From positions 31,443-95,442 of the forward strand of contig JAWANB010000001.1 of the NCBI GenBank assembly GCA_038895675.1: DNA of 64,000 nucleotides. The letters run 5' to 3'. This stretch comes from Candidatus Iainarchaeum sp. (GTDB lineage: Archaea > Iainarchaeota > Iainarchaeia > Iainarchaeales > Iainarchaeaceae). Every line of letters starts with the position of its first letter. Position 1 is the first letter of the stretch. The notes below the pieces were generated by a model, which saw only the letters and a list, made by a program, of their open reading frames with translations, did not search any database and was not told the DNA's origin. Positions 16,757 to 64,000 of the stretch are shown here, in pieces. A program made the translations under genes and the position numbers.

Positions 16757-16787
16757 AACCTAAATAAAAATCTAACGAAAATTTTTA

Positions 16788-18977: not shown

Positions 18978-19021
18978 TTCACCACAAAAAAAGACTATTA
19001 TATCTAAATTGCTGCAACTAA

Positions 19022-28081: not shown

Positions 28082-28120
28082 AACAAAAACAATTTTGAGC
28101 TATAAAAGAATTTTGTTTAC

Positions 28121-29416: not shown

Positions 29417-29417
29417 T

Positions 29418-41678: not shown

Positions 41679-41684
41679 GAATTT

Positions 41685-43040
41685 TCACCTATGCAAAGGA
41701 AACTTTTTACACAAACCTAAAACTTCTTCCCTAACCTCTAAAATTTCTTTATCCTCAAAAATACCTTTTTTAGCTTTCTCTATTGCTTTTTCTCTTAAAC
41801 TCTTTTCATCGGGGAAATCAAAAACACAAGAACGCTTAACGACTTTTGCAATAAGCCTACCAATTATTTCCATTTCTTTTTCTTTCAAACCTCTAGTAGT
41901 AATAGCAGGCGTACCTAATCTAATTCCACTTGGATAAAAAGGACTGCTAGGGTCAAAAGGAATAGTGTTCTTGTTAACAGTTATCCCTGCCCTCTCAAGC
42001 CCCAATTGAGCATAAAAACCCTTTCCTTTTCCAAACATTGTTAAATCAATCAAAAGCAAATGATTGTCAGAACCATCAGTAACAAGCTTTAAACCATTTT
42101 CAATAAGAGTTTTAGCCAAAGCCTTAGAATTTTTTACTATTTGTAAAGCATAATCTCTAAACTCTGGCTTTAACGCCTCACCTAAAGCAACAGCAATGGC
42201 TGCTGTCTGGTGATCATGAGGACCGCCTTGCAAACCAGGAAAAACGGCCTTGTCAATTTTAGAAGGCAACTCAGGATCCTTTTCAAGACCTTTCTTTGTA
42301 ACCATTATGAGAGCACCACGAGGACCTCTCAAAGTCTTATGAGTAGTAGTAGTTACTATATGAACATAAGGCACAGGACTTTCATGAGCTTTTCCAGCCA
42401 CTAAACCAGAAATATGGGAAATGTCAGCAGCCAAGTAAGAACCAACTTCATCAGCAATAACACTAAATTCTTTGAAAGGTAAAGCACGAGGATAAGCAGT
42501 AGCACCAACCCAAATAAGTTTAGGTTTATGCTCAAGTGCAAGTTGCCTTACATTTTCAAGATCAATATAGCCATTAGGCAAAACATTGTATTGAATGCTT
42601 CTATAAATTTTACCTGAAAAATTTACATTCCAACCATGAGTCAAATGACCGCCAGCAGTAAGACTTTGACCAAGCACAACATCGTTAGGATTCAACAAAG
42701 CAAAATAAACAGCATGATTAGCAGGGCTTCCTGAATAAGGCTGAACATTTACATGCTCAACACCAAAAAGTTTTTTCGCCCTCTCAATAGCCAAATTCTC
42801 GACTTTATCAACAAACTCTTGACCACCATAATACCTTTTCCCAGGATAGCCCTCAGAATACTTGTCAGTAAAAACAGAACCTAAAGCTTCACGAACAGCA
42901 ACACTACAATTGTTTTCAGAAGGAATCATTTCAAGGCCATTTTCCTGCCTCTCACTTTCAGCCTTAATCAAATCAAAAACAATTTTATCAGAATCCTTTA
43001 AAGACTTTCCAACCAAAGCAAAAACCCCAAATATTAGCAA
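41685..43040 (-). CDS. glyA: Serine hydroxymethyltransferase.
   Basis: LEMIPSENNCSVAVREALGSVFTDKYSEGYPGKRYYGG, plus the PLP-lysine region VTTTTHKTLRGPRG. Confidence 0.9.
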   Translation of the reverse strand: MLIFGVFALVGKSLKDSDKIVFDLIKAESERQENGLEMIPSENNCSVAVREALGSVFTDKYSEGYPGKRYYGGQEFVDKVENLAIERAKKLFGVEHVNVQPYSGSPANHAVYFALLNPNDVVLGQSLTAGGHLTHGWNVNFSGKIYRSIQYNVLPNGYIDLENVRQLALEHKPKLIWVGATAYPRALPFKEFSVIADEVGSYLAADISHISGLVAGKAHESPVPYVHIVTTTTHKTLRGPRGALIMVTKKGLEKDPELPSKIDKAVFPGLQGGPHDHQTAAIAVALGEALKPEFRDYALQIVKNSKALAKTLIENGLKLVTDGSDNHLLLIDLTMFGKGKGFYAQLGLERAGITVNKNTIPFDPSSPFYPSGIRLGTPAITTRGLKEKEMEIIGRLIAKVVKRSCVFDFPDEKSLREKAIEKAKKGIFEDKEILEVREEVLGLCKKFPLHR

Positions 43041-43084
43041 ACTTAATTCAATTTAAAAAATCAACTATAAAAGTAAAAAAAAAG

Positions 43085-43867
43085 CTAATGTCTTATAGTA
43101 GGCCTCTTAGGATACCCCAAACCTTTTCCTTTTACAAAATTAGCAACATGATCTGCTATCTCTCTACTAGGAAAAGTTCCCTTAGGACCTCTTACTTTAT
43201 CTCTTACTTTCCTTGGTCTATAACCACCTCTTTCTATCTTGAACCCTAATTTATTAACTAGAGCAGCAATTCTTTGCCTAATAGTCTCAACATTAACATG
43301 CACAGGTTTAAAACCAACTTTCCTTAATTTTGAATATATTTCATCACTAAATCTTGTAATTTCACCACTATTTATAACAGGTTTAAAACCACGGGGTACT
43401 TTAGAAAAACACTTATCTTTATTCATTTCCAAATAAAATCTGAACATACTAAATATCATTGGCCAAGGATAAAAATAACCTGAAACTCTATTTTCCCTTA
43501 TCAGATTACCTAACTTTTCTAACTTAGAATCCATTTGTTTCTCGTTTTCAAAAACAAACAAACATTTTTCGTGAAAGTCACTAACAAAACCAAGAAGCGA
43601 TTGCTCATTAAATTGAAGTTCAATATTTTTAATTTTTTCAATCTTGTTTCGCAAAACTTTTGTAGCAACCCCGGCAAAACTACATTCGTCATAATGCATC
43701 AATAAATAAAAAAGAGCCGCTTCTAAAAATGGTTTGTAACTACCAAACGAATATTTAATATCATCTCCAATTTTTTCTCTAATATAATCATCCAATTCTC
43801 TTTCATTATTGAAACTTAACTCTAAATTTCCTTCAAAAACAAGTCGAGGTTTTTTAAGTGTTTCCAT
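43085..43867 (-). CDS. Hypothetical protein with a basic C-terminus.
   Basis: 260 aa with no recognisable domain. C-terminal RGGYRPRKVRDKVRGPKGTFPSREI. Confidence 0.35.
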   Translation of the reverse strand: METLKKPRLVFEGNLELSFNNERELDDYIREKIGDDIKYSFGSYKPFLEAALFYLLMHYDECSFAGVATKVLRNKIEKIKNIELQFNEQSLLGFVSDFHEKCLFVFENEKQMDSKLEKLGNLIRENRVSGYFYPWPMIFSMFRFYLEMNKDKCFSKVPRGFKPVINSGEITRFSDEIYSKLRKVGFKPVHVNVETIRQRIAALVNKLGFKIERGGYRPRKVRDKVRGPKGTFPSREIADHVANFVKGKGLGYPKRPTIRH

Positions 43868-43883
43868 TTAAAACCACTAAAAC

Positions 43884-44855
43884 TCATTTTTGCGTACTTT
43901 TCTCAAGGAATGAAACATACTCATGCATTACTTCTTCAAGCTTTGGAACCTTAAACCTTTTTTCACCAATCCATTCGTTGCATACACTTGCGTACATGTT
44001 TGAAACAATCTTCACTAATTCCTCTGGGAGTTTAGGTGGCACAGGCCAAACTCCTTTTTCAAGTTTTTTTGCCTTAGCTTCTTCTAATTGCTTATACCAA
44101 TCCAGTTTTTTGTAATAATCCCTACAAACTTGCTTGCTTACATGAATGTTATTCCACAAAAACCTATTTTCATCCAACGTTCCGCAAACATCAACAAGCA
44201 TTATTTCGTTTTTAGGAGTTATAGCAAATTCTACTTTACCATCAGCATGTTCAAGTCCTAAAGAGTTTGCTTTTTCTGTTATAAAATCATTTATGTTCAA
44301 AACGGCTTCTTTGATTTCGTACATTTGATCTTCGGTTATCTTAGAAATTTCTAAAGCCTCATCCCAAGAAAGATACCTGTCTGTAGGTTCAAGTTTTGTG
44401 CTAACATCAATAAAAGCCTTTTCAAATTTATGCCCGGGCTTTGGCTCTTCTGTCAAACCAAGGTCATCTAAAGTCAATTCACCATTTTGAAGCCTTTTAA
44501 AAACTGAACTTCCTTCAGGCAAAGTATTTCTAAAAATTATTTCAAGAGGAACAAGGTAATTAGTTGTTTCTTCATAAATTTTATGAATTGATGGATTAAG
44601 AACTCTTACAAGATTTACTTCCATTTTAGTTCCAGAAATCATTTTTCTAAAATGTGTTTTTATTCCAAACTTTGATTCTATTTGCTTAAAATTATAAGAC
44701 GCCTGTCTACACAAAGACTCGCCTTTATAAGGTATTTTGTCTGGCATTTTACCATAATCAAAAACGCTATAATCATCAGTAAACTCAAAAACGCCAACAC
44801 CCATTTTGTCTTCGGTTGGCTCTTTTTCAACTATCAAATTTTTGACAGAACCCAT
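43884..44855 (-). CDS. purC: SAICAR synthetase (long form).
   Basis: VGVFEFTDDYSVFDYGKMPDKIPYKGESLCRQASYNFKQIESKFGIKTHF and LVPLEIIFRN are PurC ATP-grasp-like signatures. Confidence 0.7.
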   Translation of the reverse strand: MGSVKNLIVEKEPTEDKMGVGVFEFTDDYSVFDYGKMPDKIPYKGESLCRQASYNFKQIESKFGIKTHFRKMISGTKMEVNLVRVLNPSIHKIYEETTNYLVPLEIIFRNTLPEGSSVFKRLQNGELTLDDLGLTEEPKPGHKFEKAFIDVSTKLEPTDRYLSWDEALEISKITEDQMYEIKEAVLNINDFITEKANSLGLEHADGKVEFAITPKNEIMLVDVCGTLDENRFLWNNIHVSKQVCRDYYKKLDWYKQLEEAKAKKLEKGVWPVPPKLPEELVKIVSNMYASVCNEWIGEKRFKVPKLEEVMHEYVSFLEKSTQK

Positions 44856-44981
44856 TTAATCACCTAAAAAATTAAATGACATTTATTTAAAAATCTCACA
44901 CTATTTAAATGCAATTTTTGCAACTTAAACATTTTTACAATTAAGTTTAAAATTGCCTTGCTATTTTATGGTTTTGGTCTT

Positions 44982-46247
44982 ATGACAGGAATAGTAATAG
45001 TAGGTTCACAATTTGGAGATGAAGGCAAAGGAAAAGTAACAGACTTTTATGCTGGGAAAGCTGATTGTGTAGTGCGTTATCAAGGTGGAAACAATGCAGG
45101 TCATACAGTAGTAGTTGGTAATAAAACTCTAAAATTTCATTTGTTGCCTAGTGGAGCAATGCAAAACAAAAGAATATTAATAGGAGCAGGCGTAGTCTTA
45201 GATCCAAGAGTTCTTAAAAAAGAATTAGAAGAACTAGAAAAAGCAGGAATAAAAATTAATTTAGGAATAGATCCAAGAACGCACATTATAATGCCATGGC
45301 ACAATTTGTTAGACGAAGGTAGAGAAGAGTCAAGAAACAAAACAAAAATAGGTACGACTAAAAGAGGCATAGGCCCATGCTATGCTGACAAGGCAGAAAG
45401 GTTAGGGATAAGGTTTGAAGAATTAATAGATGAAAAAAATCTGAAAGATAGAGTATTAGAAGTTTTTCCTATAAAAAAAGCTATTCTTGAAAAAGTTTAT
45501 AACATAAAAGTTAACTTTAATGCCGAAGAAATTATTAAAGAGTATTCAGAGTTAGGTAAAGAACTAAAGACTTTTTTGAGCGACGTGAGCCTAGAAGTCT
45601 TTGAAAGTCTTGAAAAAAACGAAGAAATTATTTTTGAAGGAGCACAAGGAACTTTTTTAGATAACGACTTTGGCACTTACCCTTTTGTAACAAGCTCGCA
45701 CCCATTATCAAGTGGAGCACCAACAGGAGTAGGAATACCGTTCTCAAAAATAACAAAAATAATAGGAGTCGTAAAAGCATACACTACAAGAGTAGGATTT
45801 GGCCCTTTTCTCACCGAGTTAGTAGACAAAACAGGAGAACATTTGATTAGTAAAGGAAACGAATTTGGAACTACTACAGGTAGAAAAAGAAGAGTAGGGT
45901 GGCTAGACTTACCAATGCTAAGAACATCAATGCGCCTAAATGGTTTTACAGAATTAGCTATTACAAAGCTTGATGTATTAAGTGGACTAAAGACCATTAA
46001 AGTATGTACAAGCTACAAGATTAATGAAAAAAAAGTAAATTACTTTCCTTATAGCAACAAAGGAATTGAAAAAGCAGAGCCTATCTATAAAGACTTTGAA
46101 GGATTTAACATAATTGGAACAGAAAAAAAGTTTGAAGAATTAGACAAAAACGCAAGAATTTATTTAGAATACATAGAAAAAGAACTTAAAACACCAATAA
46201 AGTTTATTTCAATAGGAGCTGAAAGAGGACAAACGATCTTAAAATAA
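44982..46247 (+). CDS. purA: Adenylosuccinate synthetase.
   Basis: VIVGSQFGDEGKGKVTDFY...YQGGNNAGHTVV and GTTKRGIGPCY. The track ORF starts 8 codons earlier. Confidence 0.92.
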   Translation: MTGIVIVGSQFGDEGKGKVTDFYAGKADCVVRYQGGNNAGHTVVVGNKTLKFHLLPSGAMQNKRILIGAGVVLDPRVLKKELEELEKAGIKINLGIDPRTHIIMPWHNLLDEGREESRNKTKIGTTKRGIGPCYADKAERLGIRFEELIDEKNLKDRVLEVFPIKKAILEKVYNIKVNFNAEEIIKEYSELGKELKTFLSDVSLEVFESLEKNEEIIFEGAQGTFLDNDFGTYPFVTSSHPLSSGAPTGVGIPFSKITKIIGVVKAYTTRVGFGPFLTELVDKTGEHLISKGNEFGTTTGRKRRVGWLDLPMLRTSMRLNGFTELAITKLDVLSGLKTIKVCTSYKINEKKVNYFPYSNKGIEKAEPIYKDFEGFNIIGTEKKFEELDKNARIYLEYIEKELKTPIKFISIGAERGQTILK

Positions 46248-46316
46248 AAAAAACATAAAAAAAATTAATGCGTTTAAATTAAAAAAATTTGCAATTTTAA
46301 TTAATAAGGTGATAGT

Positions 46317-47129
46317 TTGGCAGATGTTTTTGTTGTTTTTGGGTCTCAAACAGACGAAAAAACATACAATCTACTAAATGAAAAACTAAAAAAAAGTGGG
46401 ATTTCATTAGATTTTAGAGTATTGAGTGCACATAAAACACCAAAAGAACTTGAATACGAATTGAACGATACAAATGCAGAACTTTTTGTTGCAGGAGCTG
46501 GGCTTTCAGCAGCATTGCCAGGAGTAATAGCCTCTAAAAAAATTAAACCAGTAATAGGTTTACCTTGCGATAGTGCCTTTTCAGGAATAGACGCTTTTCT
46601 TTCTTGTGCACAAATGCCTTCAGGAGTTCCAGTAATAACTGTCGGTGTCAATAAAATAGAAAAAGTATTAAAGTTATGCGGTAATTTTTTGCACGGCTTT
46701 ACAGAAATAGTCTTAGTAAAAAAGACATCAAACATAGAAAAAAATTATTATGAAAAATGTAAAGAATTTCTACAATCAAACAAAATACCTTTTTCAGAGA
46801 CAACTAACATAGGAAAATTTGACCATTCAAAAGTATTTATTGACTTTTTGAAATTAGGAAAAAAGCCAAAACAAACAGACAACATAGTTATTACTTGCGC
46901 AGTAGCAGACAAAGCAAAAAAAAATGATGCAATAAAATTTTTTGACTCAATGCAAAACACTTATTGTGTTGGTTTAAACAACTACAAAAACGCAGCAATA
47001 GCTGCCATACAACTCACAAACTTGAAAGGCACTTACTCTAATTTACTTTTAGAGCTAAGAAGAAAAGAAGCCGAAAAAGTCATCAATAGCAACAAATACG
47101 CTTCTTTAATCTCAAGGTCTGCTGAATAA
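46317..47129 (+). CDS. purE: N5-CAIR mutase PurE with an approximately 100-aa C-terminal extension.
   Basis: VFVVFGSQTDEK...VLSAHKTP...AGAGLSAALPGVIAS...PVIGLP...MPSGVPVITVG is the PurE core. It is followed by an extra segment ending in a PurE-like tail, NAAIAAIQLTNL. TTG start. Confidence 0.7.
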   Translation: MADVFVVFGSQTDEKTYNLLNEKLKKSGISLDFRVLSAHKTPKELEYELNDTNAELFVAGAGLSAALPGVIASKKIKPVIGLPCDSAFSGIDAFLSCAQMPSGVPVITVGVNKIEKVLKLCGNFLHGFTEIVLVKKTSNIEKNYYEKCKEFLQSNKIPFSETTNIGKFDHSKVFIDFLKLGKKPKQTDNIVITCAVADKAKKNDAIKFFDSMQNTYCVGLNNYKNAAIAAIQLTNLKGTYSNLLLELRRKEAEKVINSNKYASLISRSAE

Positions 47130-47216
47130 CAATAATAACTGAACCACACCAAAACCAAATAACAAAACTAAAAAAACTAACAACAACAATTCAAATAAAC
47201 AAATCAAGACAAAAAA

Positions 47217-48764
47217 CTAATGCCTGAAATGTCTTTCGTTAGTAAAATACAACGAAATTTTTCTCCTTTCTGCTTCTTCTATTACTTGATTATCATTAAT
47301 GCTTCCGCCTGGCTCAACCACAGCAATAATCCCAGCATCAGAAGCTATAGTTATACTATCCTTAAAAGGAAAAAACGCATCAGAGGCAAGCACAGCATTA
47401 GTACAATTAAAACCTGCTTTTTTTATTGCCAACTCAACAGCATCAATACGCGAAGAAAGACCACCACCAATACCAATAGTAGCCAAATCTTTTGCAATTA
47501 CTATTGCATTACTTTTAACATTTTTTACAACACGCCAAGCAAATTCCAAGTCTCTAAGTTCATTACTATTAGCTTTTCTAGAAGTCTTCAAATCAAAAGT
47601 AATTTTTTTCAAATTGTCTTTTTCTTGGCAAAGCATTCCGCCATCTATTTGTCTAAACTCAAATTTTTCACTTTGAACTGAAAACTCTAACTGTAAAACT
47701 CTCAAATTAGGTTTTTTCAAAAGTAGTTTAAAAGCATCTTCAGAATAAGAAGGAGCAACAACAGCCTCATTAAAAAAAGAAACTATTTGTTCAGCACAAC
47801 TAACATCACATTCCCTATTCAAAGCGATTATCCCGCCAAAAGCACTCAAAGAATCAGACTTATAAGCACGAGAAAAAGCAGAGGAAATATTATTACTTAT
47901 AGCTACTCCACAAGGATTGCCATGCTTAACAATTGCAACACATGGCTCAGAAAACTCTTTAACTATTTGCAAAGCAGCATCAAGATCTAAATAGTTATTA
48001 TAAGAAAGTTCCTTCCCATTCAATTGCTTTGCATTTACTAGTTGGGAATTAAAAGTAAAGGGAAACTTGTACAAAGCACCTGCCTGGTGTGGATTTTCAC
48101 CATACCTTAACTCACTAATTTGTCTTAATGCGATTGTTTTTTCACGAGCAAAAAAAGGCAAACCAAATTTTTGTTGAAAAAAATTAGAAATAATAGAATC
48201 ATAAAAAGCAGTATGAGAAAAAGCTTCTACCATCAACTCCTTTCTTAACTCAGAACTCAACCTAAAATCATTCTTTGAAAGTTCGTTCATCACTTTTTTG
48301 TATTGAAGAGGCGAAGTAACAACTCCAACATACTCAAAATTCTTTGCAGCACCTCTTATCAACGATGGACCACCAATATCAATATTTTCAATCAAGTCTT
48401 CCAACAAAAGAGACTTCAACGCCACTTCCTCAAAAGGATAAAGATTAACAACGACTAAGTCAATAGTAGAAATACCATGTTTCTCAAGTTCTTCCAAATG
48501 CTTTTTTTCTCTTTTAGCAAGTATTCCTGCATGAATTTTTGGATGCAATGTTTTTACTCTCCCCTCAAGCATTTCTGGAAAATTTGTTATGTCTTCAACT
48601 TTTTCAGATTTAATACCTGCTAAAAGTAAAGCATTATAAGTGCCCCCTGAAGAAATCAGTTTGACACCATTATCAGAAAGAAATTTTGCAAATTCTGCTA
48701 AATTAGTCTTATCATAAACTGATAAAAGTGCAGTCTTAACTTTATGCATGTACATGCTAAGCAC
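47217..48764 (-). CDS. purH: Bifunctional AICAR transformylase/IMP cyclohydrolase.
   Basis: KTALLSVYDKTNLAEFAKFLSDNGVKLISSGGT (MGS-like domain) and a C-terminal AICARFT domain. Confidence 0.9.
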   Translation of the reverse strand: MLSMYMHKVKTALLSVYDKTNLAEFAKFLSDNGVKLISSGGTYNALLLAGIKSEKVEDITNFPEMLEGRVKTLHPKIHAGILAKREKKHLEELEKHGISTIDLVVVNLYPFEEVALKSLLLEDLIENIDIGGPSLIRGAAKNFEYVGVVTSPLQYKKVMNELSKNDFRLSSELRKELMVEAFSHTAFYDSIISNFFQQKFGLPFFAREKTIALRQISELRYGENPHQAGALYKFPFTFNSQLVNAKQLNGKELSYNNYLDLDAALQIVKEFSEPCVAIVKHGNPCGVAISNNISSAFSRAYKSDSLSAFGGIIALNRECDVSCAEQIVSFFNEAVVAPSYSEDAFKLLLKKPNLRVLQLEFSVQSEKFEFRQIDGGMLCQEKDNLKKITFDLKTSRKANSNELRDLEFAWRVVKNVKSNAIVIAKDLATIGIGGGLSSRIDAVELAIKKAGFNCTNAVLASDAFFPFKDSITIASDAGIIAVVEPGGSINDNQVIEEAERRKISLYFTNERHFRH

Positions 48765-49380
48765 CCAAAACTATTTTGCCATCAATAACCATTTTAAGAG
48801 CTTCTAAAAGGCATTCTTGTTCAGCCTTTTGTACCTTTTTTTTTAAAGTCTCAACATTATCATTCTTTTCAACAATAACTTTTTTTTGAAGAATTATTTT
48901 ACCACCATCAACTATTTCATTAACTTCATGCAAAGTACAACCTGTTTCTTTATCTCTGTTCTTCAAAACCATTTCATAAACATTCAAATTCATAGCACCA
49001 GCATATTTAGGCAACAAACTCGGATGAACATTCCAAATTCGTCCTTTGAAAGACTGAACAAAAAAAGGCGATAGTATTTTCATAAAACCTATGAGTAAAA
49101 TCAAATCAACATTTTTTTTCTTTAACTCTGAAACGATAACTTCCTCTGCATCTTTTCTTTCAGGAAAACTAGAATAGTCAACAAAAATAGTATTAATATT
49201 GTTGAGTTTGGCGCGTTCAAGAATATAAGCGTCTTTTTTATCAGAAACAACCAAACAAATTTCGCAATTCAATTGTCCATTATTAATAGCATCTATTATA
49301 GCCTGCAAGTCAGTACCACGCGTCGAACCCAAAACACCCAATTTTAATTTTTTTTCTTTATAACTTCCCCAAGCACCCAA
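48757..49380 (-). CDS. purN: Phosphoribosylglycinamide formyltransferase.
   Basis: KLGVLGSTRGTDLQAIIDA...NVHPSLLPKYAG. The true start may be a downstream TTG, which would remove the 37-nt overlap with purM. Confidence 0.85.
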   Translation of the reverse strand: MGAWGSYKEKKLKLGVLGSTRGTDLQAIIDAINNGQLNCEICLVVSDKKDAYILERAKLNNINTIFVDYSSFPERKDAEEVIVSELKKKNVDLILLIGFMKILSPFFVQSFKGRIWNVHPSLLPKYAGAMNLNVYEMVLKNRDKETGCTLHEVNEIVDGGKIILQKKVIVEKNDNVETLKKKVQKAEQECLLEALKMVIDGKIVLGA

Positions 49381-50357
49381 GCTGATTCACCTTTAGAAGA
49401 CAAAAAAGAAATAGTTTTAGGAACGTCTTTTTTACTTACTATCAAAACCAATCCAACACCCATGTTGAAAGTCCTAAACATTTCGTTATCACTTATTTTA
49501 CCTTTTTCTTGAATAAGCCTAAAAATAGAAGGTATTTTTACTGAATCAAAATCATATTTTGCATCCAAATTTTCAGGAATTATCCGAGGCAAGTTTTCTA
49601 TAATGCCACCACCAGTAATGTGAGCAACCCCGTGAACTTTAACTTTTTCTAATAAAGACAAAACAACATTACTATAACTTTTATGAACACTAAGCAAAGC
49701 ATCACCTAAAGTAGTTCCTAAAACCTCAATATGGTCAGTCACTTTAAAACCAGCTTCTTCCAACAAAACTTTTCTCGCCAAACTAAAGCCATTAGTATGC
49801 AAACCATTGGAAGCCAAGGCAATTAAAACATCGCCTTCTGAAACTTTAGAAGAATCTAAAAAGTTCTTCTTTTCAACAATGCCCACCATAAAACCAACTA
49901 TGTCATGTTCGCCTTCCAAATAAACACCAGGCATTTCGGCAGTCTCGCCACCAATCAATGGGCAATTCAAAGACTTACAAGCAATAGCCATTCCACTAAC
50001 TATTTCAGCCACGATTTCTGGTTTCATCTTTGAAGAGGCAATATAGTCCATAAAAAACAAAGGTTTCGCACCCATACAAAGAATATCGTTAGAACAATGA
50101 TTTACTATGTCAGCACCAACAGAATCCCACTTATTCATTAGAGCAGCAACTTTAAGTTTAGTTCCAACACCATCAACAGTAGAAACCAAAAAAAAATCTT
50201 TAGTATTACCTATCCTTTTCAAAGAAACAACAGCACCAAAAGAACCAACACCAGAAATGACGTTTTTATTATAAGTGCCTTTAACTATATTGCCAATCAA
50301 GTCTTCAGCCAAATTACCAGCATCAATGTCAACACCGGCTTTTTTATAATCAGTCAT
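49344..50357 (-). CDS. purM: AIR synthetase.
   Basis: DYKKAGVDIDAGNLAEDLI...SGVGSFGA...DGVGTK. Confidence 0.9.
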   Translation of the reverse strand: MTDYKKAGVDIDAGNLAEDLIGNIVKGTYNKNVISGVGSFGAVVSLKRIGNTKDFFLVSTVDGVGTKLKVAALMNKWDSVGADIVNHCSNDILCMGAKPLFFMDYIASSKMKPEIVAEIVSGMAIACKSLNCPLIGGETAEMPGVYLEGEHDIVGFMVGIVEKKNFLDSSKVSEGDVLIALASNGLHTNGFSLARKVLLEEAGFKVTDHIEVLGTTLGDALLSVHKSYSNVVLSLLEKVKVHGVAHITGGGIIENLPRIIPENLDAKYDFDSVKIPSIFRLIQEKGKISDNEMFRTFNMGVGLVLIVSKKDVPKTISFLSSKGESAWVLGEVIKKKN

Positions 50358-51741
50358 TTAAAAGCCTCTTTTTCCAATACTTACAAACGAGCTCTGTTTT
50401 CTTTGAAGAAAGACCGACATAATTAACAGGATTTTTTACAATATTCTTCTCTTTCTCAGAAAACTTTTCCCAAAAAGACTTTACAACAGAATTAGACAAA
50501 GCAACTTCTAAAAACTTTTTATTATTTTTTTCAGCCTCTAAAGTAATTTCCCTAACCAACTCATGAGCATTACTATGACCATACTTTGCCAACAAAATAT
50601 ATAATGGCTCAGCACCCAACTTACTTTCTGAAATAGAAAAGTTTTTTTTCATAGAAGACTTATCAATTACCAAATTAGAAGAAACCCTTTCAAGTCTATC
50701 AACACAAACAGCCAAAGCCAAAAATAATTCAGGTATGAAACGAGCACTAGCACTATTAGTCAAATCACGCTGATGCTCAGAAATAGCATCCAAGTTATAA
50801 GTAATCAAGCGAGGTAAAAAAGCTTTCCACATGCTTTTAACATTCTCAAAATTAATCGGATTTCTCTTATGTGGCATCGTACTAGAACCCACTTGTTTTT
50901 CTCCAAAACTTTCCATGACCTCAGAAATTTCACTCCTTTGTAAATGCCTCATGTCATCACTAAAATTAGCAAGCACATTAAAACACTCCATTAAAGCGTT
51001 AAGAAGCCTTAACATAGTCTCAGGATTAACTATTTGTGTAGAATGACGAGCACATTTCAAACCAAGCAAAGTAAGCACATCAGACTCAAATTTTAAAGGA
51101 TCCTTTACAATTAACGAAGAAGCGTTGTAAGAACCTACAGCACCAGAAAATTTGCCCTCTAAAGAATCAGCACAATTTTGAATATTTTCAATGGACATAC
51201 CAAGTCTATTCACATAAGAAGACATTGTAAAACCAAAAGTAATAGGCTCTGCATGCTGCCCATGAGTCCTGCCTATTTGTAATGTGTCTTTCTCTCTCAA
51301 AGCAATTGCAATCCAAACATTGAGCAAAGACTTCAACTTAGGCAACAAAAACAATTTAGCTGTTTCTTTATAGCGCAAAGCAGAAGCAGTATCTACAATA
51401 TCATAAGAAGTAGCAGAAAAATGCACAAATCTTTTAGCATCATCAGAAACCTTAGACCTAATAACATTTGCAAGAGCTCTAACGTCATGCTTGATTTTTT
51501 TTTCTTCAGCATAAACCTCTTCAGCACTAACAGACTCACAAGCAACAGATATTTCGTCTGCAATTTTTTTAGAACAAACACCATGCAAAGCCAAAACTCT
51601 CACAAGAGCAGCCTCAACTTTTGCCTGATACCTTATCCTTGCATTTTCAGAAAGAAATTTTTCAGCCTCAATCTTTAATTGCCCATCAACATACCTATAA
51701 TCAAAAGGCGAAAAAAAATCAAACTTATCCAAAAATAACAC
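50350..51741 (-). CDS. purB: Adenylosuccinate lyase.
   Basis: Fumarase/ASL-family signature SSTMPHKRNP and an N-terminal SPFDYRY. Confidence 0.9.
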   Translation of the reverse strand: MLFLDKFDFFSPFDYRYVDGQLKIEAEKFLSENARIRYQAKVEAALVRVLALHGVCSKKIADEISVACESVSAEEVYAEEKKIKHDVRALANVIRSKVSDDAKRFVHFSATSYDIVDTASALRYKETAKLFLLPKLKSLLNVWIAIALREKDTLQIGRTHGQHAEPITFGFTMSSYVNRLGMSIENIQNCADSLEGKFSGAVGSYNASSLIVKDPLKFESDVLTLLGLKCARHSTQIVNPETMLRLLNALMECFNVLANFSDDMRHLQRSEISEVMESFGEKQVGSSTMPHKRNPINFENVKSMWKAFLPRLITYNLDAISEHQRDLTNSASARFIPELFLALAVCVDRLERVSSNLVIDKSSMKKNFSISESKLGAEPLYILLAKYGHSNAHELVREITLEAEKNNKKFLEVALSNSVVKSFWEKFSEKEKNIVKNPVNYVGLSSKKTELVCKYWKKRLLND

Positions 51742-52738: not shown

Positions 52739-53950
52739 ATGCCAAACTTTTCCAATATTGCACCAATCATAGGCTTAATAACCATAGCCATAATTGTTTC
52801 AACCATATACTATGGAGACTTTTTAGGTGTAAAAAATGTTTTTCAAATAACTGCATTTATTACCGCTAATTTTTCAAGCACTCCAAGCACTTTTTACCCA
52901 ACTATTTCACCAATAACTTTACAAAGCATAAGCATAAGCCGTTCTACTACCACTAGCCCAACCACAACAACACAACCAACACAAACCACAACACCAAACC
53001 CAACCACAACAACACAACCAACACAAACCACAACACCAAACCCAACCACAACAACACAACCAACACAAACCACAACACCAAACCCAACCACAACAACACA
53101 ACCAACACAAACCACAACACCAAGAATAAATAATAAACCAATAATAGTGATAGTAGATCCAACCTATAATTCCGTTTATACTGAAACAGATAAAATAACA
53201 GTTCAAACAGAAGTATTTGACTTTGAAAACAATGTAAGCTTTGTTGAATTCTTCTTAAATGATCAACTTATCTCAAAAGATGAAACATCGCCATATTCAA
53301 TTACATTAGAAAATTTGAAAGAAGGGATTTATGAAATAAGTGCAATAGCAACAGATCAACTAGGGTTAAATAGCAAGTCAAACATAGTTAAAATAGAAAT
53401 ACAAAAACAAAGAAGAACAACACAAAGTCCAAGACCAACAACAAGTACACCACAACCAACACAAAGCGTTCAACGAAAAACATGGGAAAGAGAATCTAAT
53501 AACAAATTATCTCCAGACAAACCATTAGTAATAATTACTAAACCAGATGCAGGACAAAAATTTTTTATTAACCAAACTTTTGAGTTTGAAGCCGAACTAA
53601 GACCAAAAGACTTCAACATAGAAAAAATGGAATTTTACATTAATGAAAAACTAATAAACACAGACTATGAGGCTCCATATTCAATAGAATATTCTGAAGA
53701 CAAATTAGGAGTATATACGTTAAGGGCGGTAGCAGTCTATGAAAAAACCCAAACTGCTTTTTCAAAACCAACGTGGATAACAATAACAAATCCAGAACAG
53801 CAAAAGCAAACAAAATCAATTTTAGAAATACCATTTATTGAAAATGGAAAAAAACAAGAAGAAAAGCAAGAACAAAATATTGTTAAAGAAGAAAAAAAAT
53901 ACAATTCTATACTTGACTTTATAATAGACTACTTACTAAAACTAATTTAA
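52739..53950 (+). CDS. Surface protein with a mucin-like Thr/Pro/Gln tandem-repeat linker and two Ig-like domains.
   Basis: N-terminal TM. About four 14-aa repeats (TTTTQPTQTTTPNP). Two homologous roughly 90-aa domains (…SPYSITLENLKEGIYEISAIATD… and …APYSIEYSEDKLGVYTLRAVAVY…). Confidence 0.6.
   Translation: MPNFSNIAPIIGLITIAIIVSTIYYGDFLGVKNVFQITAFITANFSSTPSTFYPTISPITLQSISISRSTTTSPTTTTQPTQTTTPNPTTTTQPTQTTTPNPTTTTQPTQTTTPNPTTTTQPTQTTTPRINNKPIIVIVDPTYNSVYTETDKITVQTEVFDFENNVSFVEFFLNDQLISKDETSPYSITLENLKEGIYEISAIATDQLGLNSKSNIVKIEIQKQRRTTQSPRPTTSTPQPTQSVQRKTWERESNNKLSPDKPLVIITKPDAGQKFFINQTFEFEAELRPKDFNIEKMEFYINEKLINTDYEAPYSIEYSEDKLGVYTLRAVAVYEKTQTAFSKPTWITITNPEQQKQTKSILEIPFIENGKKQEEKQEQNIVKEEKKYNSILDFIIDYLLKLI
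52957..53124 (+). repeat. 4 x 42-nt perfect tandem repeat encoding TTTTQPTQTTTPNP, inside the CDS.
   Basis: The unit cccaaccacaacaacacaaccaacacaaaccacaacaccaaa is repeated head-to-tail. Confidence 0.85.
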
Positions 53951-53954
53951 AATT

Positions 53955-55817
53955 TCATAAATTTCTATTGAAAATAGTAAAAATAATGAAAGTAATAGCA
54001 GGAACTATCAATTTCAAAATCTCTTCCACTAAATTGAAAATACTTGTTCCTTTTACCATTACCTCTATCAATAAATTCACTCCTAAATTTAGAGGCATTA
54101 TACTTCCTAAGGACTGAATAGGTTTGCTCATTAATTCAATAGGAATAATTATTCCGCTTATAAAAATCATAGGAACGACTAACAACAAGCCAGTCAAAAT
54201 AGTAGTTGATTGAGTCTTAGTATAATTAGTTATTAGCAAGCCAAGAGAAATAAAAGATACGGAAATTACTGAAATAGCAATGAAAATTTCCAAAAAACTA
54301 GAAGCTAAATTGACACCGAAAAAATAGACTGAAATAGCTAATATTAAAGCCGCTTCTAAAAGAGAAAAAAACAATTGGCCAAGCACTTTTCCTGTGAACA
54401 AAGTTGCTTTGTTAGTTCTTGAAAGAACTAAACGAGAAAATGCACCTTCGTTTCTTTCAACAACAAAAGATACACCAGTAAGAAGAATAGTTGTAAGCAT
54501 TAAAACTATCGCCATCGCCATTGGAGACAATATATCCAACTTTGAAACCTTATACAAACTTATTTTGTTTATTATTATCGGATTGGCCAAAAATTGTGGA
54601 TTCAAAGATTTTAATTCGTCAAGCTTTGAAACAAAATTAGAAAGCATCGCCAAACTCGAATTCAAATCACTGCTAACTCTTTGCTTTGTAATTAATGATT
54701 CGTCAATTAAATTATTCACTTTATCTATGGTTTTACTCAAATTATCCAAGTTAGAGTTAAAATAATCTAAATTGTTTTTAGACGCCTCTATTCTATTTGA
54801 AATGTCCAAAAGCTCAGAATCTATTTCAGCCAAATCAGTTGATACCCTGCCCAACTCATTCTCTAAAGAAGTTAACTCGTTATAAGCGCTATCCAAATCA
54901 ACTTCAGCGTTAGCCAAAGTATTATATGCAGAACTAATTTTTGAACAAACATTATAAGTATCAGTTCCAGAATTAATGCAAAATTGTCTTGCAACTTCTA
55001 ATGAATTCTTTGCTTCGGTTATTTTAGCTTTATAATTTAAAACTTTTCTTTTAGATTCTGCTATTTTTTCAACTTTTTCATTTCTCAATTCCTTAAATTT
55101 AGCTATTTTTTCCCTGAACAAAGACAACTTAGGGCCACTTTCCTCAACAAACTTTTTTTGCTCATCAAGATTTTTTCGCATTTCTTTGATATCAATAGCT
55201 TCAACAGACTTTCTTAACTCTATGAGTTCTTTTTCACTTTCATCTAACTGCAAAATAAACTGCTTTACTTTCATGACCTCTTGCCCTATTTCTCTTCTCA
55301 TTAAGTCAAGGCTTGACCAAATCTGAGAAAGCATTTTTCTGGACGTTTCAAAACCTACGGCCCTTATAGAATCATTAGCGGCCTGGAAGAACAAAGTAGA
55401 AGCAATAAATTCTGTATTATTATTAATGACATCAACGACAAACCTTCCTTGAGTAACCTCTACTTCTCTAACAATTATGCCAAGCTTAACTTTTTTCTTA
55501 TCAACACTTTTCAACAACTCATCTTCACTATTAAAAATAATTATTTTCACAAGATTTGATTTTTCAAGGTTTGAAACAAAGTCTTGGACGTCAAAAGACT
55601 TTATTTCGGAAGAAACATAAAAACCAACATTAATAGCGCCTATAGAAGCAGTGCCTGAATATGCAAGACCTAAAGTGACTATTACAATTATAGGGTAAAG
55701 CAAAATCAATGCAATAGCTATTTTTTGAGTTTTAATCAAGTCTATTTCTTTAGCAGCTATCGCAAACAAAGAAAAGAAAGGCAATTTCTCAATCAAAAAC
55801 CTTAATTTCTTAATCAC
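53955..55817 (-). CDS. ABC-2 family permease (YhgE/Pip-like) with a large extracytoplasmic coiled-coil domain.
   Basis: TM1, then about 350 aa of helical/coiled-coil sequence, then 5 C-terminal TMs. Overlaps the upstream ATPase gene by 4 nt. Confidence 0.6.
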   Translation of the reverse strand: MIKKLRFLIEKLPFFSLFAIAAKEIDLIKTQKIAIALILLYPIIVIVTLGLAYSGTASIGAINVGFYVSSEIKSFDVQDFVSNLEKSNLVKIIIFNSEDELLKSVDKKKVKLGIIVREVEVTQGRFVVDVINNNTEFIASTLFFQAANDSIRAVGFETSRKMLSQIWSSLDLMRREIGQEVMKVKQFILQLDESEKELIELRKSVEAIDIKEMRKNLDEQKKFVEESGPKLSLFREKIAKFKELRNEKVEKIAESKRKVLNYKAKITEAKNSLEVARQFCINSGTDTYNVCSKISSAYNTLANAEVDLDSAYNELTSLENELGRVSTDLAEIDSELLDISNRIEASKNNLDYFNSNLDNLSKTIDKVNNLIDESLITKQRVSSDLNSSLAMLSNFVSKLDELKSLNPQFLANPIIINKISLYKVSKLDILSPMAMAIVLMLTTILLTGVSFVVERNEGAFSRLVLSRTNKATLFTGKVLGQLFFSLLEAALILAISVYFFGVNLASSFLEIFIAISVISVSFISLGLLITNYTKTQSTTILTGLLLVVPMIFISGIIIPIELMSKPIQSLGSIMPLNLGVNLLIEVMVKGTSIFNLVEEILKLIVPAITFIIFTIFNRNL

Positions 55818-56770
55818 TCTTTCATCCTCTCGCCAGTAAGATTAAGAAAAACGTCTTCAAGCTCGGGTTCTTTTATTATAGAACTTATTACCTCATAACC
55901 TTGATTTTCAAGCCATTGAGTAAGCAATGAAATTTTTTCAATAGAATGTTCCTGCGAAAAAGAAATTATTATAGTGGAACCTTGAACTTCAACTTGAGAA
56001 TCTTCAAAAGAATTTTTTATGGCTTCAGCATGGTCTTGCATTATAATATGAGATAATTTCATAACCAAAATTCTTACGCCGCCATATTTTTTTATTAGTT
56101 CAAAAGGCTCTCCTACAACAATAAGTTTGCCATTCACCAACAAGCCAACTCTATTACAAAGAGACTGAGCCTCGTCCAAGTAATGCGTAGTAATACAAAT
56201 CGTTTTACCTTGTTCTTTCAATTCATAAATTTTTTTCCAAAGTAAACGCCTCATAGTAGGGTCAAGGCCAACAGTAGGCTCGTCCAAAAAAACTATTTTT
56301 GGATCATGAACAAGAGAACAAGCAATATTTAGCAAACGCTTATAACCACCACTAAGCTCGTTAACAGGCCTGCCAGAAAAATCACTTAATTGAAACCAGT
56401 CAAGCAAATATTTTGTTCTTTCCTCAAGCTTTTCAGCTTTTATACCATACATTAAACCAAAAAAACGAATGTTTTGCTCAACTGAAAAACCATGATAACA
56501 ACTAATTTCCTGAGGCACTACGGCAAACAATTTTTTTATTTCTTCTTTCTTTTCATCCAAGTTAAGGCCAAAATAAGCAACATTACCTTTATCAGCCTCA
56601 AGCAAACTAGTCATGATTTTTATCAAAGTGCTTTTTCCAGCACCATTACTACCAAGCAAACCAAAAATTTCTTTCTCATAAAGCTCAAGCGAAACATTGT
56701 CTAAAGCCAAGTAATCGCCATAAAATTTTGTAATATTCTCAACTAAACAAACCGGAGTTGACATAAACAC
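55814..56770 (-). CDS. ABC transporter ATP-binding protein.
   Basis: Walker A GSNGAGKST, signature LSGGYKRLL, Walker B IVFLDEP. Confidence 0.9.
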   Translation of the reverse strand: MFMSTPVCLVENITKFYGDYLALDNVSLELYEKEIFGLLGSNGAGKSTLIKIMTSLLEADKGNVAYFGLNLDEKKEEIKKLFAVVPQEISCYHGFSVEQNIRFFGLMYGIKAEKLEERTKYLLDWFQLSDFSGRPVNELSGGYKRLLNIACSLVHDPKIVFLDEPTVGLDPTMRRLLWKKIYELKEQGKTICITTHYLDEAQSLCNRVGLLVNGKLIVVGEPFELIKKYGGVRILVMKLSHIIMQDHAEAIKNSFEDSQVEVQGSTIIISFSQEHSIEKISLLTQWLENQGYEVISSIIKEPELEDVFLNLTGERMKE

Positions 56771-58544: not shown

Positions 58545-59306
58545 TCACCTCATTCTATTTCTATTAAACCTATTGCTCAATGATGTAAGAGAAAATCTAC
58601 GTAATCTTTTTGGAACAGATTTTAATTTTTCCACAACAAATTTTCTAAAATCAATAACATCAGAAACTCGAGTAATTTCTTCTAATTGTCTCCTTTCATC
58701 TTTTACAAGCGGCGCTCTAGCCTTAAACAATATTTTAGACAAAAACAATTGTCTTTTTTTTGGTATAAGATAATTTAAAGCTCTTTCTAATCCATAACCA
58801 TGCAACAAAGACAACCATTTTTTATTATTTACTAAAATAGGATTCAAAACAAAAAATTTTATTGCTCTTTGTCCAGAAAATTCAGGAATTAAAGAATTGT
58901 TACCTTCTACAACAGAGCCTACACACATATAATAGTTGCTATTGATGAGTTTATTTACCATAAAATCAATACTTTCAGTTTTTAAATCATACAAATCAGC
59001 ATCTAAAGTAACTAAAACATCAGGCTCATTTTTAGCCAAATGCTTCACTCCAGTAATAAAAGCCTCGGCTTTGCCAACATTCCTGCCAAGAGGCGAAGAA
59101 TCAATGACCTCAAGAAAATCAAATTCTTCCAATAATTCTTTAGTTCTGTCAGTGCTACCATCATTAACAACTAAAATTCTTCTATTCGAATAATCTTGCT
59201 CCTTCCATTTTTTTAAACGCTTGACTAAATCAACTATATTATCTTCTTCATTATAAGCAGGCACCAAAACACAAACTTTGACATTTTGTACATTCATCCA
59301 AACCAC
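58545..59306 (-). CDS. GT2 glycosyltransferase (dolichyl-phosphate sugar transferase-like).
   Basis: VLVPAYNEEDNI...ILVVNDGSTDRT...VTLDADL gives GT-A DxD motifs. Confidence 0.75.
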   Translation of the reverse strand: MVWMNVQNVKVCVLVPAYNEEDNIVDLVKRLKKWKEQDYSNRRILVVNDGSTDRTKELLEEFDFLEVIDSSPLGRNVGKAEAFITGVKHLAKNEPDVLVTLDADLYDLKTESIDFMVNKLINSNYYMCVGSVVEGNNSLIPEFSGQRAIKFFVLNPILVNNKKWLSLLHGYGLERALNYLIPKKRQLFLSKILFKARAPLVKDERRQLEEITRVSDVIDFRKFVVEKLKSVPKRLRRFSLTSLSNRFNRNRMR

Positions 59307-59310: not shown

Positions 59311-60258
59311 TCATTTATAAAGCATCCCATAGTATAATTGCTCTATCAAAGCTTTATACCTTAGATCGCCATTATAATAAAAAGACTCTATCGGAGCAGC
59401 ATAATAAGCAACCCTTTCACCAACACCATTAGTAACTATCAAAGGAAGCTTTTTTCCAACATCATACTTTTTACCTTTCTCTATCCAAGGCTTATTATCA
59501 GATGAAACTAAAACATCAGACAAATTATCAATAACAGCAACAATTTTTACGTTAGAAGACTTTTTTGACCTAACTAAAGCATAATCTCCTTTAAATTCAA
59601 GAGTAGGACTTAAACCATAAACTAATTTATGCTCAGAATCCAAAACTTCTAAATAGCCCGAAAAAGAATTTTTAGAACAATCGTTAAACTCACAATAATT
59701 TCCAACATAATCCAAACCTAAAGTCTCGTCAAAAGACAATTGCCTACCAAAATCTTCCCTAGCCCAAGGACCCAAAGGAAATTCCTTACCGCCTTCAATT
59801 CTTTGGTTTTCTAAAAGCAACCTGTCATTTTCACAAAGTTCCGTGCCCGCATCCCCAGTCCAAACAAGACGACCACCTATACTCAAATAATATTGGAAAA
59901 GACGCAATTTGTCAGAACAAATTTTTTTTGCACGCTCCACGATTATCAAATCATAATTACTAATAGTCCCATAAGTCAACAAACTAATATCAATACTTGA
60001 AACCTTAGACCCTAAAAAATCCCGATCAGACAAAAGCTCTTCAAGCTTATTAGGATCACCCAAACCATAATCAGAATAAGCGATCAAAACTTTTGGAGCT
60101 CTACCTTTAACAACCTGATAATATACTTCACAGCCGCCAGGCAAAAAATCACAACTAACCAAACCAGTATAAACAAGAACCCACAACAAAACCAAAAGCA
60201 AAACAAACAAAACCAAAAACCTGAAAACCAAATTGTTAGAAGACATTATCAAAAACAA
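59311..60258 (-). CDS. Membrane-anchored extracytoplasmic protein, diverged paralogue of 5804..6754.
   Basis: Same conserved blocks as its partner: GCEVYYQVVKGRAPKVLIAYSDYGLG, YDLIIVERAKKI...GGRLVWTGDAGT, LGPWAREDF...SFDETLG, GVGERVAYYAAP and a C-terminal LYYGMLYK. Confidence 0.6.
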   Translation of the reverse strand: MFLIMSSNNLVFRFLVLFVLLLVLLWVLVYTGLVSCDFLPGGCEVYYQVVKGRAPKVLIAYSDYGLGDPNKLEELLSDRDFLGSKVSSIDISLLTYGTISNYDLIIVERAKKICSDKLRLFQYYLSIGGRLVWTGDAGTELCENDRLLLENQRIEGGKEFPLGPWAREDFGRQLSFDETLGLDYVGNYCEFNDCSKNSFSGYLEVLDSEHKLVYGLSPTLEFKGDYALVRSKKSSNVKIVAVIDNLSDVLVSSDNKPWIEKGKKYDVGKKLPLIVTNGVGERVAYYAAPIESFYYNGDLRYKALIEQLYYGMLYK

Positions 60259-60304
60259 CTACTTTCACATTTTAATTATTTACTTTTGAAAAAAACTTGC
60301 AAAA

Positions 60305-60390
60305 TGCAGGAGGGAGGATTCGAACCTCCGAAGGCACTAAGCCACTGGCACCTCAAGCCAGCCCAATTGACCGGACTATGGGACTCCTGC
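60305..60390 (-). tRNA. tRNA-Leu (anticodon GAG), type II with a long variable arm. CCA is not encoded.
   Basis: The reverse complement folds as follows. Acceptor GCAGGAG/CTCCTGC. 3-bp D stem. Anticodon stem CTGGC/GCCAG with loop TTGAGGT. Long variable arm. T arm GGAGG-TTCGAAT-CCTCC. Discriminator A. Confidence 0.85.
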
Positions 60391-60667
60391 ACTTAAATAA
60401 AATAATTCATCAAACACCTTTTTATAAAGTTTGCAAAAAACCGCTTGCAAAAATTCAAACGACTTTTTATTTATTTTTATTTAATTAGTCCAAAAAATAA
60501 GTAAAAACAAAAGCAAAAAAAGGAGTAAGCCAGGGATCTGCAAACTCAAAACAAAAATTTGAGCCGCCCACCAAAGGCAAAGCAGTATAGCTTACCCCCT
60601 TAACTCCCAATACACCAAAATAATTACTAACTTAAAGTTTTTATATTTTAGCGCTTTCAGTTTCTAA

Positions 60668-61318
60668 ATGGATAAAATAGTTGCTTCAGTTTTAGACGCC
60701 GATTTTTCAAATTGGAAAACTTGGCTGAAAGCCATAGAAAACTCAGGAATAAAAAGAATACAATGGGACATAATGGACAACAAGTTTGTAGAAAATAATG
60801 GCGTAGATAAAAAATACATTCAAATACTAAGACCAAAAACAAAACTCTTTTTTGAATCGCACTTAATGGTAAATTACCCAGAAAATTACATAAACGAATT
60901 TGCCGAAAATGGAACACAATTACTCATATTTCACTTAGAATCAACTAAGAACCCATTAAACCTAATAGAAAAAATTGAAGATCATGGACTAAAAGTAGGA
61001 ATGGCAATAGACATAAACACAGACCAAAAAAAAATTTACCCCTTCTTAGATAAAATAGACTTGGCTTTAGTCATGAGCGTAAAAGCAGGAAAAGGAGGCC
61101 AAAAATTCCAAGAAAAAGTCTTGACAAAAATCAAAGAATTAAAAAAAGAAATACAAAACAACGAACTACAATGCGAAATAGAAGTAGACGGAGGAATTAA
61201 GCCAGAAACAGCAAAAAAATGCCTAAATGCTGGAGCAAACCTTTTAGTAGTTGGAAGCTACATATTCAAAAACCCAATAGGAATAAATGCAGCATTAGAA
61301 GAATTGAAAAAAATTTAA
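60668..61318 (+). CDS. rpe: Ribulose-phosphate 3-epimerase.
   Basis: IVASVLDADFSNW...HLMV...MAIDI...DGGI are the RPE TIM-barrel motifs. Confidence 0.85.
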   Translation: MDKIVASVLDADFSNWKTWLKAIENSGIKRIQWDIMDNKFVENNGVDKKYIQILRPKTKLFFESHLMVNYPENYINEFAENGTQLLIFHLESTKNPLNLIEKIEDHGLKVGMAIDINTDQKKIYPFLDKIDLALVMSVKAGKGGQKFQEKVLTKIKELKKEIQNNELQCEIEVDGGIKPETAKKCLNAGANLLVVGSYIFKNPIGINAALEELKKI

Positions 61319-63413: not shown

Positions 63414-64000
63414 TCACTTTTTCTCAATGAAAAGACCTATTAAAAAAGCAAACAATAAATTTGAAAAAATATGAATAAAAGAAAAAGGCCAAACCAAAAT
63501 AGCCCCATCAGGAATATTAACAATTATTTCAAAAATTAAAGTACCTAAAACAGAATAATAAACTAAATCTTGAGAGCTAACAAAATTTTTAAAACCAGCA
63601 ATAGCACCAGCAATAGCACCACCTAAACTCTGCAAAATAGACCAAACACCAAAAAGCCCACCTTCAAGAAAAATATTTGACAAAGGATAAGCCAACAGAC
63701 CTATTAAAATCGCCCCATCAGAACCATAAACCAAACCAACATAAACAGCAATAGGAATTATAGGCTCAACAGAAACAAAAACTGGAAACTCTTTTAACAA
63801 AAGACGCCCAAAAACAGCAATACCTAAAAGCATTAAAAATTTAGTCTCGCTTAACTTTCTTTTAGTAAAAACTTTTTCAACTTTACCACTTTTTGCTTCC
63901 TCACTACCATGAGAAGAATGCTCAGCATGCTTGCTATGCTCGCCATGACTTTCATGATTAACATGTTCAGCATGACTCTCACTATGTTCCTCATGAGACT
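63414..64000 (-). CDS. Membrane protein with a His-rich N-terminal extension (putative metal-binding). The 5' end is outside the window.
   Basis: The frame stays open upstream of the track's Met at 63833 to the window edge. It encodes ...SHEEHSESHAEHVNHESHGEHSKHAEHSSHGSEEAKSGKVEKVF... ahead of 4-5 TM helices. Confidence 0.5.
   Translation of the reverse strand, partial: SHEEHSESHAEHVNHESHGEHSKHAEHSSHGSEEAKSGKVEKVFTKRKLSETKFLMLLGIAVFGRLLLKEFPVFVSVEPIIPIAVYVGLVYGSDGAILIGLLAYPLSNIFLEGGLFGVWSILQSLGGAIAGAIAGFKNFVSSQDLVYYSVLGTLIFEIIVNIPDGAILVWPFSFIHIFSNLLFAFLIGLFIEKK

Follow-up and report, generated by a model that had tools for sequence, protein, structure and literature searches.

Two paralogous genes in the window

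The DNA analysed here, referred to as the window, is a stretch of 64,000 nucleotides from Candidatus Iainarchaeum sp. (assembly GCA_038895675.1, contig JAWANB010000001.1, positions 31,443 to 95,442) with a G+C content of ~32%. It carries two related genes, both on the minus strand, which are predicted to encode an N-terminal transmembrane (TM) helix followed by an extracytoplasmic ThuA-like domain. Copy A (59311..60258) specifies 315 aa when read from the TTG at 60258, and copy B (5804..6754) specifies 316 aa from an ATG start. An earlier interpretation made without database searches (the sequence-only reading) had proposed that these open reading frames (ORFs) are members of one membrane-anchored family. 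Both ORFs are indeed present, and a BLASTP comparison aligned 296 aa of them with 43% identity and 60% positives (E 3e-74), which is far beyond chance. The conserved blocks of the family occur in both copies, and both end in LYYGMLYK; an insert ahead of the C-terminal helix, MPIDAETGKRQTYW, is specific to copy B.

The upstream regions were judged by eye, as a sigma-70-based promoter and terminator scan is uninformative for an archaeon. In NCBI record QXU92_00485, copy A is given as 311 aa, from the ATG at 60246. A TATA-like element, AAATAATTAAA, lies ~30 nt upstream of this ATG, and judging from the sequence this is probably the true start, giving a protein of 311 aa. At copy B, TTTAAT is found ~25 nt ahead of the ATG. 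Each copy thus has an upstream element of its own and may therefore have a separate promoter. It had also been proposed that each copy ends a minus-strand operon. This holds for copy B, which is the last gene in its run, but copy A is followed by a glycosyltransferase family 2 (GT2) gene, and therefore only copy B closes its gene run.

A ThuA-like ectodomain that lacks the amidotransferase triad

AlphaFold2 models of both copies were very confident (predicted local distance difference test, 94.4 and 94.5; predicted template modelling score, 0.91) and consist of one N-terminal helix (residues ~5-31) and a single alpha/beta domain. Structural comparison of the two copies ranked the GH42 middle domain first (16.9 / 17.4), followed by the ThuA-like structure 4jqs (16.7 / 16.4), the class-I glutamine amidotransferase (GATase1)-like structure 3rht (15.8 / 15.8), the IFT52 GIFT domain (14.3 / 14.4) and human OST48 (13.6 / 13.7), with true amidotransferases at 12-14. 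Foldseek agrees. The modelled family proteins have both the alpha/beta fold of class-I GATases and the three-dimensional structure of ThuA-like proteins, as the sequence-only reading had anticipated for both paralogues. As the models show them, both genes encode predicted type-II membrane proteins with an ectodomain of ~270 residues and a class-I glutamine-amidotransferase-like fold of the ThuA/GH42-middle-domain/GIFT kind.

The proposed membrane anchoring was supported. In copy A, the TM helix (residues 5-31; 60166..60246, minus strand) is a predicted signal anchor with its N terminus inside, as indicated by a DSSP helix at 5-31 and the hydropathy window. Lys and Arg average 1.64 before the TM helix and 0.70 after it across the family, and the domain is placed outside the cell because of this positive-inside bias and of two conserved Cys pairs. 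Conservation of Cys is limited to C36, C43, C189 and C194. A lipobox at the conserved Cys after the TM helix was considered and dropped: position -1 is often Arg, Lys or Pro, and the hydrophobic stretch has the length of a TM helix.

Conservation was read from an alignment of 53 family sequences. The invariant columns are C43, P55, G65, G67, V107, G129, W133, D136, R167, Y285, Y286, P289 and E291, and the near-invariant columns are C36, E108, T139, W165, N187, C189, C194, R282 and E306. In amidotransferases, the turn after strand beta-4 is the site of the nucleophile Cys. In copy A, strand beta-4 (130-134) is followed by a GDAGT turn (residues 135-139; 59842..59856, minus strand) which, by fold topology, would occupy this nucleophile-elbow position; it contains the invariant Asp136 and no Cys. 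In none of the 53 sequences' columns was a conserved His found, nor a conserved Cys at the elbow. Since a conserved His is lacking and the GDAGT turn after beta-4 has no Cys, the Cys-His-Glu triad of amidotransferases is absent.

A set of acidic, basic and aromatic residues is conserved nonetheless (Glu108, Trp133, Asp136, Thr139, Trp165, Arg167, Asn187, Arg282, Tyr285, Tyr286 and Glu291). According to the secondary structure, the conserved polar and aromatic residues follow beta-1, beta-3, beta-4 and the last core strand, which would correspond to the active-site edge of the fold. Additionally, variants of 450-790 aa (for instance at L082 5815-7179, L084 4836-6203 and L090 9935-11290; proteins P0136-P0185) have a large insert directly past the elbow motif, at about profile position 147. 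The insert contains no Pfam domain, and no fused domain was found in long family variants of 400-790 aa. Going by these sequences, the region past the elbow motif looks like an insertion hot spot beside the conserved site.

Distribution and duplication history

No valid name was obtained for either copy from Pfam or NCBIfam, and sequence and profile searches of the PDB yielded only noise, with nothing at E<=10 in the profile search. The relatives are all annotated as hypothetical, save one UniRef entry labelled 'ThuA domain-containing', in keeping with the proposal that the family is uncharacterised. Among 5.8 billion proteins, 75 relatives were found, from Diapherotrites/Iainarchaeum, Micrarchaeota or unclassified archaeal metagenome-assembled genomes (MAGs). 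When 1.84 billion representatives were scanned in full with an HMMER profile, only 169 clusters were obtained, and 129 loci were located in 185,579 species genomes, all 80 of those retrieved being in DPANN MAGs. The family is confined to Iainarchaeota/Diapherotrites and to MAGs labelled Micrarchaeota.

The conserved blocks had been likened to GATase1-like or ThuA-like proteins of ABC-2-associated systems. At the level of sequence profiles this resemblance survives as a sub-threshold echo, and no match reaches a curated threshold. ABC_transp_aux (PF09822, GldG-type) matched 30 of the 53 members weakly (best E 4.7e-4); copy B reached 18.9 bits, where the cut-off is 34.7, and aligned with profile positions 2-86 of 288, and copy A had no match. 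The GldG model TIGR03521 matched at E 0.054, below its curated threshold. Similarly, the ThuA profile PF06283 matched two of the 53 members below its curated threshold (best E 5.7e-4) and neither window copy, and DUF4350 (PF14258) gave a faint match in three of the 53 (best E 0.028). For OST48/Wbp1 (PF03345) there was no Pfam match at E<=1, and PDB sequences including 6s7o_G gave nothing at E<=10.

ORFs were called in 90 loci plus the window, and 84 non-identical family genes were kept. Eighteen are of A type (49-71% identity to copy A), eleven are of B type (53-57% identity to copy B), and the remaining 55 are ~35-40% identical to both copies. A and B occur together in at least eight genomes (seven besides the window genome), and in a neighbour-joining tree they form sister clades nested among single-copy sequences. 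On this phylogeny, the duplication is old and specific to one sub-lineage, with both copies retained. The ancient duplication suggested earlier is thus right in a relative sense, the two copies being separate sister clades that are each kept in at least eight genomes. In the lineage of the window a single gene was duplicated; copy A retains part of the old neighbourhood, and copy B joined a cluster of genes for giant proteins.

Copy B and a trio of giant surface proteins

Copy B follows three large minus-strand genes whose products are all predicted by topology to be extracytoplasmic. The first (11876..15601) encodes a protein of 1241 aa with an N-terminal signal anchor and Ig-like/CarboxypepD_reg repeats (Pfam); the second (10162..11892) encodes a surface protein of 576 aa that has a signal peptide and is anchored by a C-terminal TM helix; and the third (6890..10165), directly upstream of copy B, encodes a secreted protein of 1091 aa with a signal peptide, no anchor and no Pfam domain. 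In six of the seven B-type loci whose upstream DNA extends to 9 kb or more, this trio is found upstream of the B-type copy, in the order 1241-aa, 576-aa and 1091-aa gene. For instance, orthologues of the 1091-aa protein (29-33% identity) occupy the same position in L010, L043, L047 and L070. In L040 the trio is fused to one protein of 2338 aa, and in L033 it begins just downstream of the B-type copy. The trio proteins are 29-37% identical across genomes, versus 53-57% for copy B. The position of copy B after giant surface proteins had been noted correctly, and the suggested tie of one copy to such proteins is conserved in other genomes.

The gene at 2930..3691 (minus strand), for a protein of 253 aa that combines a TM helix with a Cys-rich secreted portion, has counterparts near eight of the eleven B loci. 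Upstream of the trio, a GH130 glycoside phosphorylase gene (15644..16756, minus strand; Pfam E 7e-44) recurs near B-type loci in four genomes (4/11 loci). It is one of a set of genes co-directional with the trio (15644..20605, minus strand) that additionally encode a GT4 glycosyltransferase of 729 aa and a protein of 527 aa in which a PfkB kinase is fused to a glucosamine-6-P isomerase/6-phosphogluconolactonase-like domain. On the other side, between copy B and a superoxide dismutase gene, a plus-strand ORF (5447..5713) corresponds to the C-terminal part of Cas4 only (PF01930, E 7e-8), and its counterparts in sister assemblies are annotated as 104-131 aa. Elsewhere in the window (26963..29476 and 40815..51741) there are a NiFe-hydrogenase large-subunit-like gene, 2-oxoacid:ferredoxin oxidoreductase genes, folate enzymes and a purine-biosynthesis run, the presence of which suggests a less host-dependent lifestyle.

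The neighbourhood of copy A

The GT2 gene that follows copy A (58545..59306, minus strand) begins 4 nt downstream of it and encodes a soluble protein (PF00535, E 2e-20). Directly upstream of copy A there is a tRNA-Leu(GAG) gene (60304..60391, minus strand; ARAGORN). Both neighbours had been reported correctly, but the description of the glycosyltransferase as dolichol-type was not borne out: it matches generic GT2 models only, and the dolichyl-phosphate hexose transferase model is far below the cut-off. Nor is GT2 an associate of the family at large. Among the 84 loci, it is found beside two of the 18 A-type copies, those of the window and its closest relative, L011, and beside none of the other 16 A-type copies or any B-type or single-copy gene. 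The suggestion that the family would co-occur with GT2 or with large surface proteins in other genomes was sustained for the surface proteins, with copy B only.

A more frequent neighbour is a multi-pass membrane protein with a His/Glu/Ser-rich N-terminal tail and weak similarity to S-components of energy-coupling factor (ECF) transporters. Its gene is directly upstream of copy A in 12 of the 18 A-type loci. In the window it is ~3 kb away (63414..64000, minus strand) and is cut by the window end; the protein has 231 aa in the genome, and the full gene is found in L091 at 10541-11236. Between it and copy A, a ribulose-phosphate 3-epimerase gene is intact in the window (60668..61318) and consists of two ORFs in assembly GCA_038889715.1 (L091 7835-8445), probably because of an assembly frameshift. 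Just past the right end of the window (L091 11609-20290) there is a second minus-strand cluster of genes for large surface proteins, of at least 1018 aa, 260 aa, 704 aa and 905 aa, the last with a vWA domain. Each of the four is anchored by a C-terminal TM helix, signal peptides are present in the three whose N termini are intact, and the cluster has no sequence relation to the trio at copy B.

An ABC-2 permease and ATPase pair (53955..56770, minus strand; Pfam) lies 3.5 kb from copy A. Two Band_7 genes of opposite orientation stand between the pair and copy A, which do not share a transcription unit, and no counterpart of the pair was found near the other 83 loci. The pair was therefore rejected as a partner, and the ABC-2 association proposed by the sequence-only reading is a feature of the window copy's surroundings alone. 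The permease of this ABC-2 transporter is 620 aa long and contains an extended coiled-coil-like insert, and an Ig-domain (Big_7) protein is encoded next to the transporter (within 52739..56770).

Sec61beta and a tandem paralogue in single-copy lineages

The two strongest context signals were beyond the reach of the sequence-only reading, because both occur in other genomes. Sec61beta (PF03911) is directly upstream of the family gene and divergent from it in 52 of the 55 single-copy loci, mostly at a distance of 10-190 nt; for instance, in L005 Sec61beta is at 9767-9940 on the minus strand and the family gene is at 10001-10927. Among the family's neighbours none is better conserved than Sec61beta, which is absent beside copies A and B.

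Additionally, in 44 of the 55 single-copy loci the family gene is followed on the same strand by a partner gene of ~284 aa (for instance, L003 11156-11986 and L005 11740-12585). In hhalign, the partner matches the family along its full domain as well as the TM helix (probability 96.8%, E 2.7e-10), and some of its members reach the Pfam ThuA profile; it is a very distant ThuA-like paralogue of the family. It has an invariant set of its own (His197, Glu245, Ser145 and a Cys pair) and keeps Asp or Asn at the elbow but not Glu291. The partner family comprises 376 clusters in the protein database, and among the best 120 of the 376 matches none carries the locus tag of the window genome.

Comparison with known systems

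The fold superfamily is known and the genomic association is new. ThuA proteins (PF06283; 4jqs, 4e5v, 1t0b) are soluble, whereas members of this family have an N-terminal anchor and conserved Cys pairs and are predicted to lie outside the cell; unlike in the ThuA context, no ThuB-type oxidoreductase or sugar-transport genes are beside the family genes. The GH42/GH164 middle (trimerisation) domain (PF08532) is part of a cytoplasmic glycosidase, whereas the family domain is stand-alone and membrane-anchored. GldG/ABC_transp_aux proteins, taken here together with the GIFT domain (Beatson & Ponting 2004, as cited in PMC7226087), have TM helices at both ends and are encoded with ABC-2 genes. The family proteins have a single N-terminal TM helix and no ABC-2 operon, and it is in the window alone that an ABC-2 pair lies less than 4 kb away.

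Among described systems, arCOG01314/DUF4350 is the closest analogue of the context of copy B. These proteins are likewise archaeal, extracellular and membrane-anchored and belong to the same fold superfamily, and they are encoded beside Ig-like or S-layer-like secreted proteins, as is copy B alone in this family (with the trio, in 6/7 loci). However, they combine a signal peptide with a C-terminal TM helix, opposite to the N-terminal anchor found here, and their hallmark neighbours, vWA and MoxR AAA+ proteins, are not among the conserved neighbours of the family. No MoxR was found among the window ORFs scanned with Pfam (most ORFs of >=250 aa), and one vWA protein is encoded ~5 kb from the region of copy A, in the window genome only. 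The archaeal GldG-like arCOG01314 has been predicted, but not shown, to take part in a complex for secretion or membrane remodelling (Makarova et al. 2015, PMC5898192).

OST48/Wbp1 differs from the family in its type-I topology and two lumenal domains, ranks structurally below the ThuA-like matches and has no sequence-profile signal with the family. The adjacency of Sec61beta could be seen to parallel the translocon setting of OST48, a parallel rather than a test. No STT3/AglB-like gene was seen near any locus; the one cluster of large membrane proteins that was checked as a candidate AglB, found near several loci, proved to be a P-type ATPase and was rejected. Among prokaryotes, reports of WBP1 homologues are restricted to Heimdallarchaeia (PMC10307638).

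Proposed role and alternatives

The interpretation tentatively preferred, at somewhat short of an even chance, is that the family protein is a non-catalytic, possibly glycan-binding, extracytoplasmic module for the docking or assembly of secreted surface proteins, with copy B acting for the trio. The domain would bind rather than catalyse, its target probably being a glycan or a protein partner, and as a subunit at the outer face of the membrane it would dock or help to assemble proteins newly out of the Sec channel. The fast-evolving trio of giant proteins would be served by copy B, and copy A would keep a general role. Such a role is favoured because triad-less relatives (GH42 domain B, IFT52 and OST48/Wbp1) are non-catalytic protein-docking or possibly sugar-binding modules (PMC7226087) and because of the prediction that a GldG-like protein acts in secretion (PMC5898192).

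Several points weigh against this role. Ligand binding and a physical partner are both presumed, and the spatial clustering of the conserved residues is read only from secondary structure. The adjacency of Sec61beta could partly be inherited gene order, and copies A and B themselves lack this neighbour. The gap between copy B and the trio is 135 nt and the median gap between family gene and partner is 138 nt, so that separate transcription is possible in both cases. Finally, the invariant polar residues are at the active-site edge of the fold, and therefore an enzyme would be equally compatible with the conservation pattern.

An enzyme is the main rival, although a doubtful one: an extracytoplasmic hydrolase, transglycosylase or deacylase, for example, that would use Asp/Glu chemistry at the old amidotransferase site to modify surface glycans, lipid-linked oligosaccharides or glycoproteins. 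A mix of acidic and aromatic residues is typical of carbohydrate-active sites. The elbow Asp136 is invariant and Glu108 nearly so, Arg167, Tyr285, Tyr286 and Glu291 are invariant, Trp133 and Trp165 are conserved, and the insertion hot spot of the long variants is directly past the elbow. Sugar enzymes (GH130, GT4 and GT2) are also encoded near both copies in the window, but these neighbours are poorly conserved, with GT2 at 2/18 and GH130 at 4/11 loci. Moreover, the domain has no established catalytic role in the closest triad-less structural relatives, no cofactor or known catalytic motif was found in the family, and the distant partner paralogue retains Asp or Asn at the elbow but has lost Glu291.

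Beyond docking and catalysis, it is conceivable but unlikely that in Iainarchaeota and Micrarchaeota the family protein pairs with its tandem paralogue in an extracytoplasmic heterodimer that assists the Sec translocon or the AglB glycosylation step, with copy B as a specialised version recruited for the export or assembly of a giant surface-protein complex. Such an accessory would be built on a GIFT/ThuA-like fold, as in eukaryotic OST48/Wbp1, which is a similarly slim prospect; specific homology to OST48 is unsupported.

Still less probable is the proposal of the sequence-only reading that the family protein and the adjacent GT2 act together in making dolichol-linked surface glycans. The 4-nt gap makes co-transcription of copy A and GT2 likely in the window genome, and L011 has the same pair, but GT2 is missing beside all other members and its profile matches are generic. 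A GldG-like accessory subunit of an ABC-2 exporter is the least credible of these alternatives, since the weak ABC_transp_aux and TIGR03521 matches and the ABC-2 pair near copy A are set against scores below curated cut-offs over one part of the profile, a TM helix at one end rather than both, the intervening Band_7 genes and the lack of an ABC-2 counterpart at the other 83 loci.

Implications

DPANN archaea rely on the cell surface to interact with hosts and with the environment, and most of their envelope genes are unnamed. The family defined here is a near-universal pair of ThuA-like membrane proteins that face outward and are specific to the lineage, and its genomic setting, with Sec61beta and, in one lineage, with giant fast-evolving surface proteins, provides testable partners. 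Were the translocon link true, the family would be a translocon-associated module not hitherto recognised in non-Asgard archaea and an archaeal protein-export accessory with a structural parallel to a subunit of the eukaryotic oligosaccharyltransferase. If that link is false, the family would still serve as a clean marker and be a candidate factor in the assembly of giant DPANN surface proteins.
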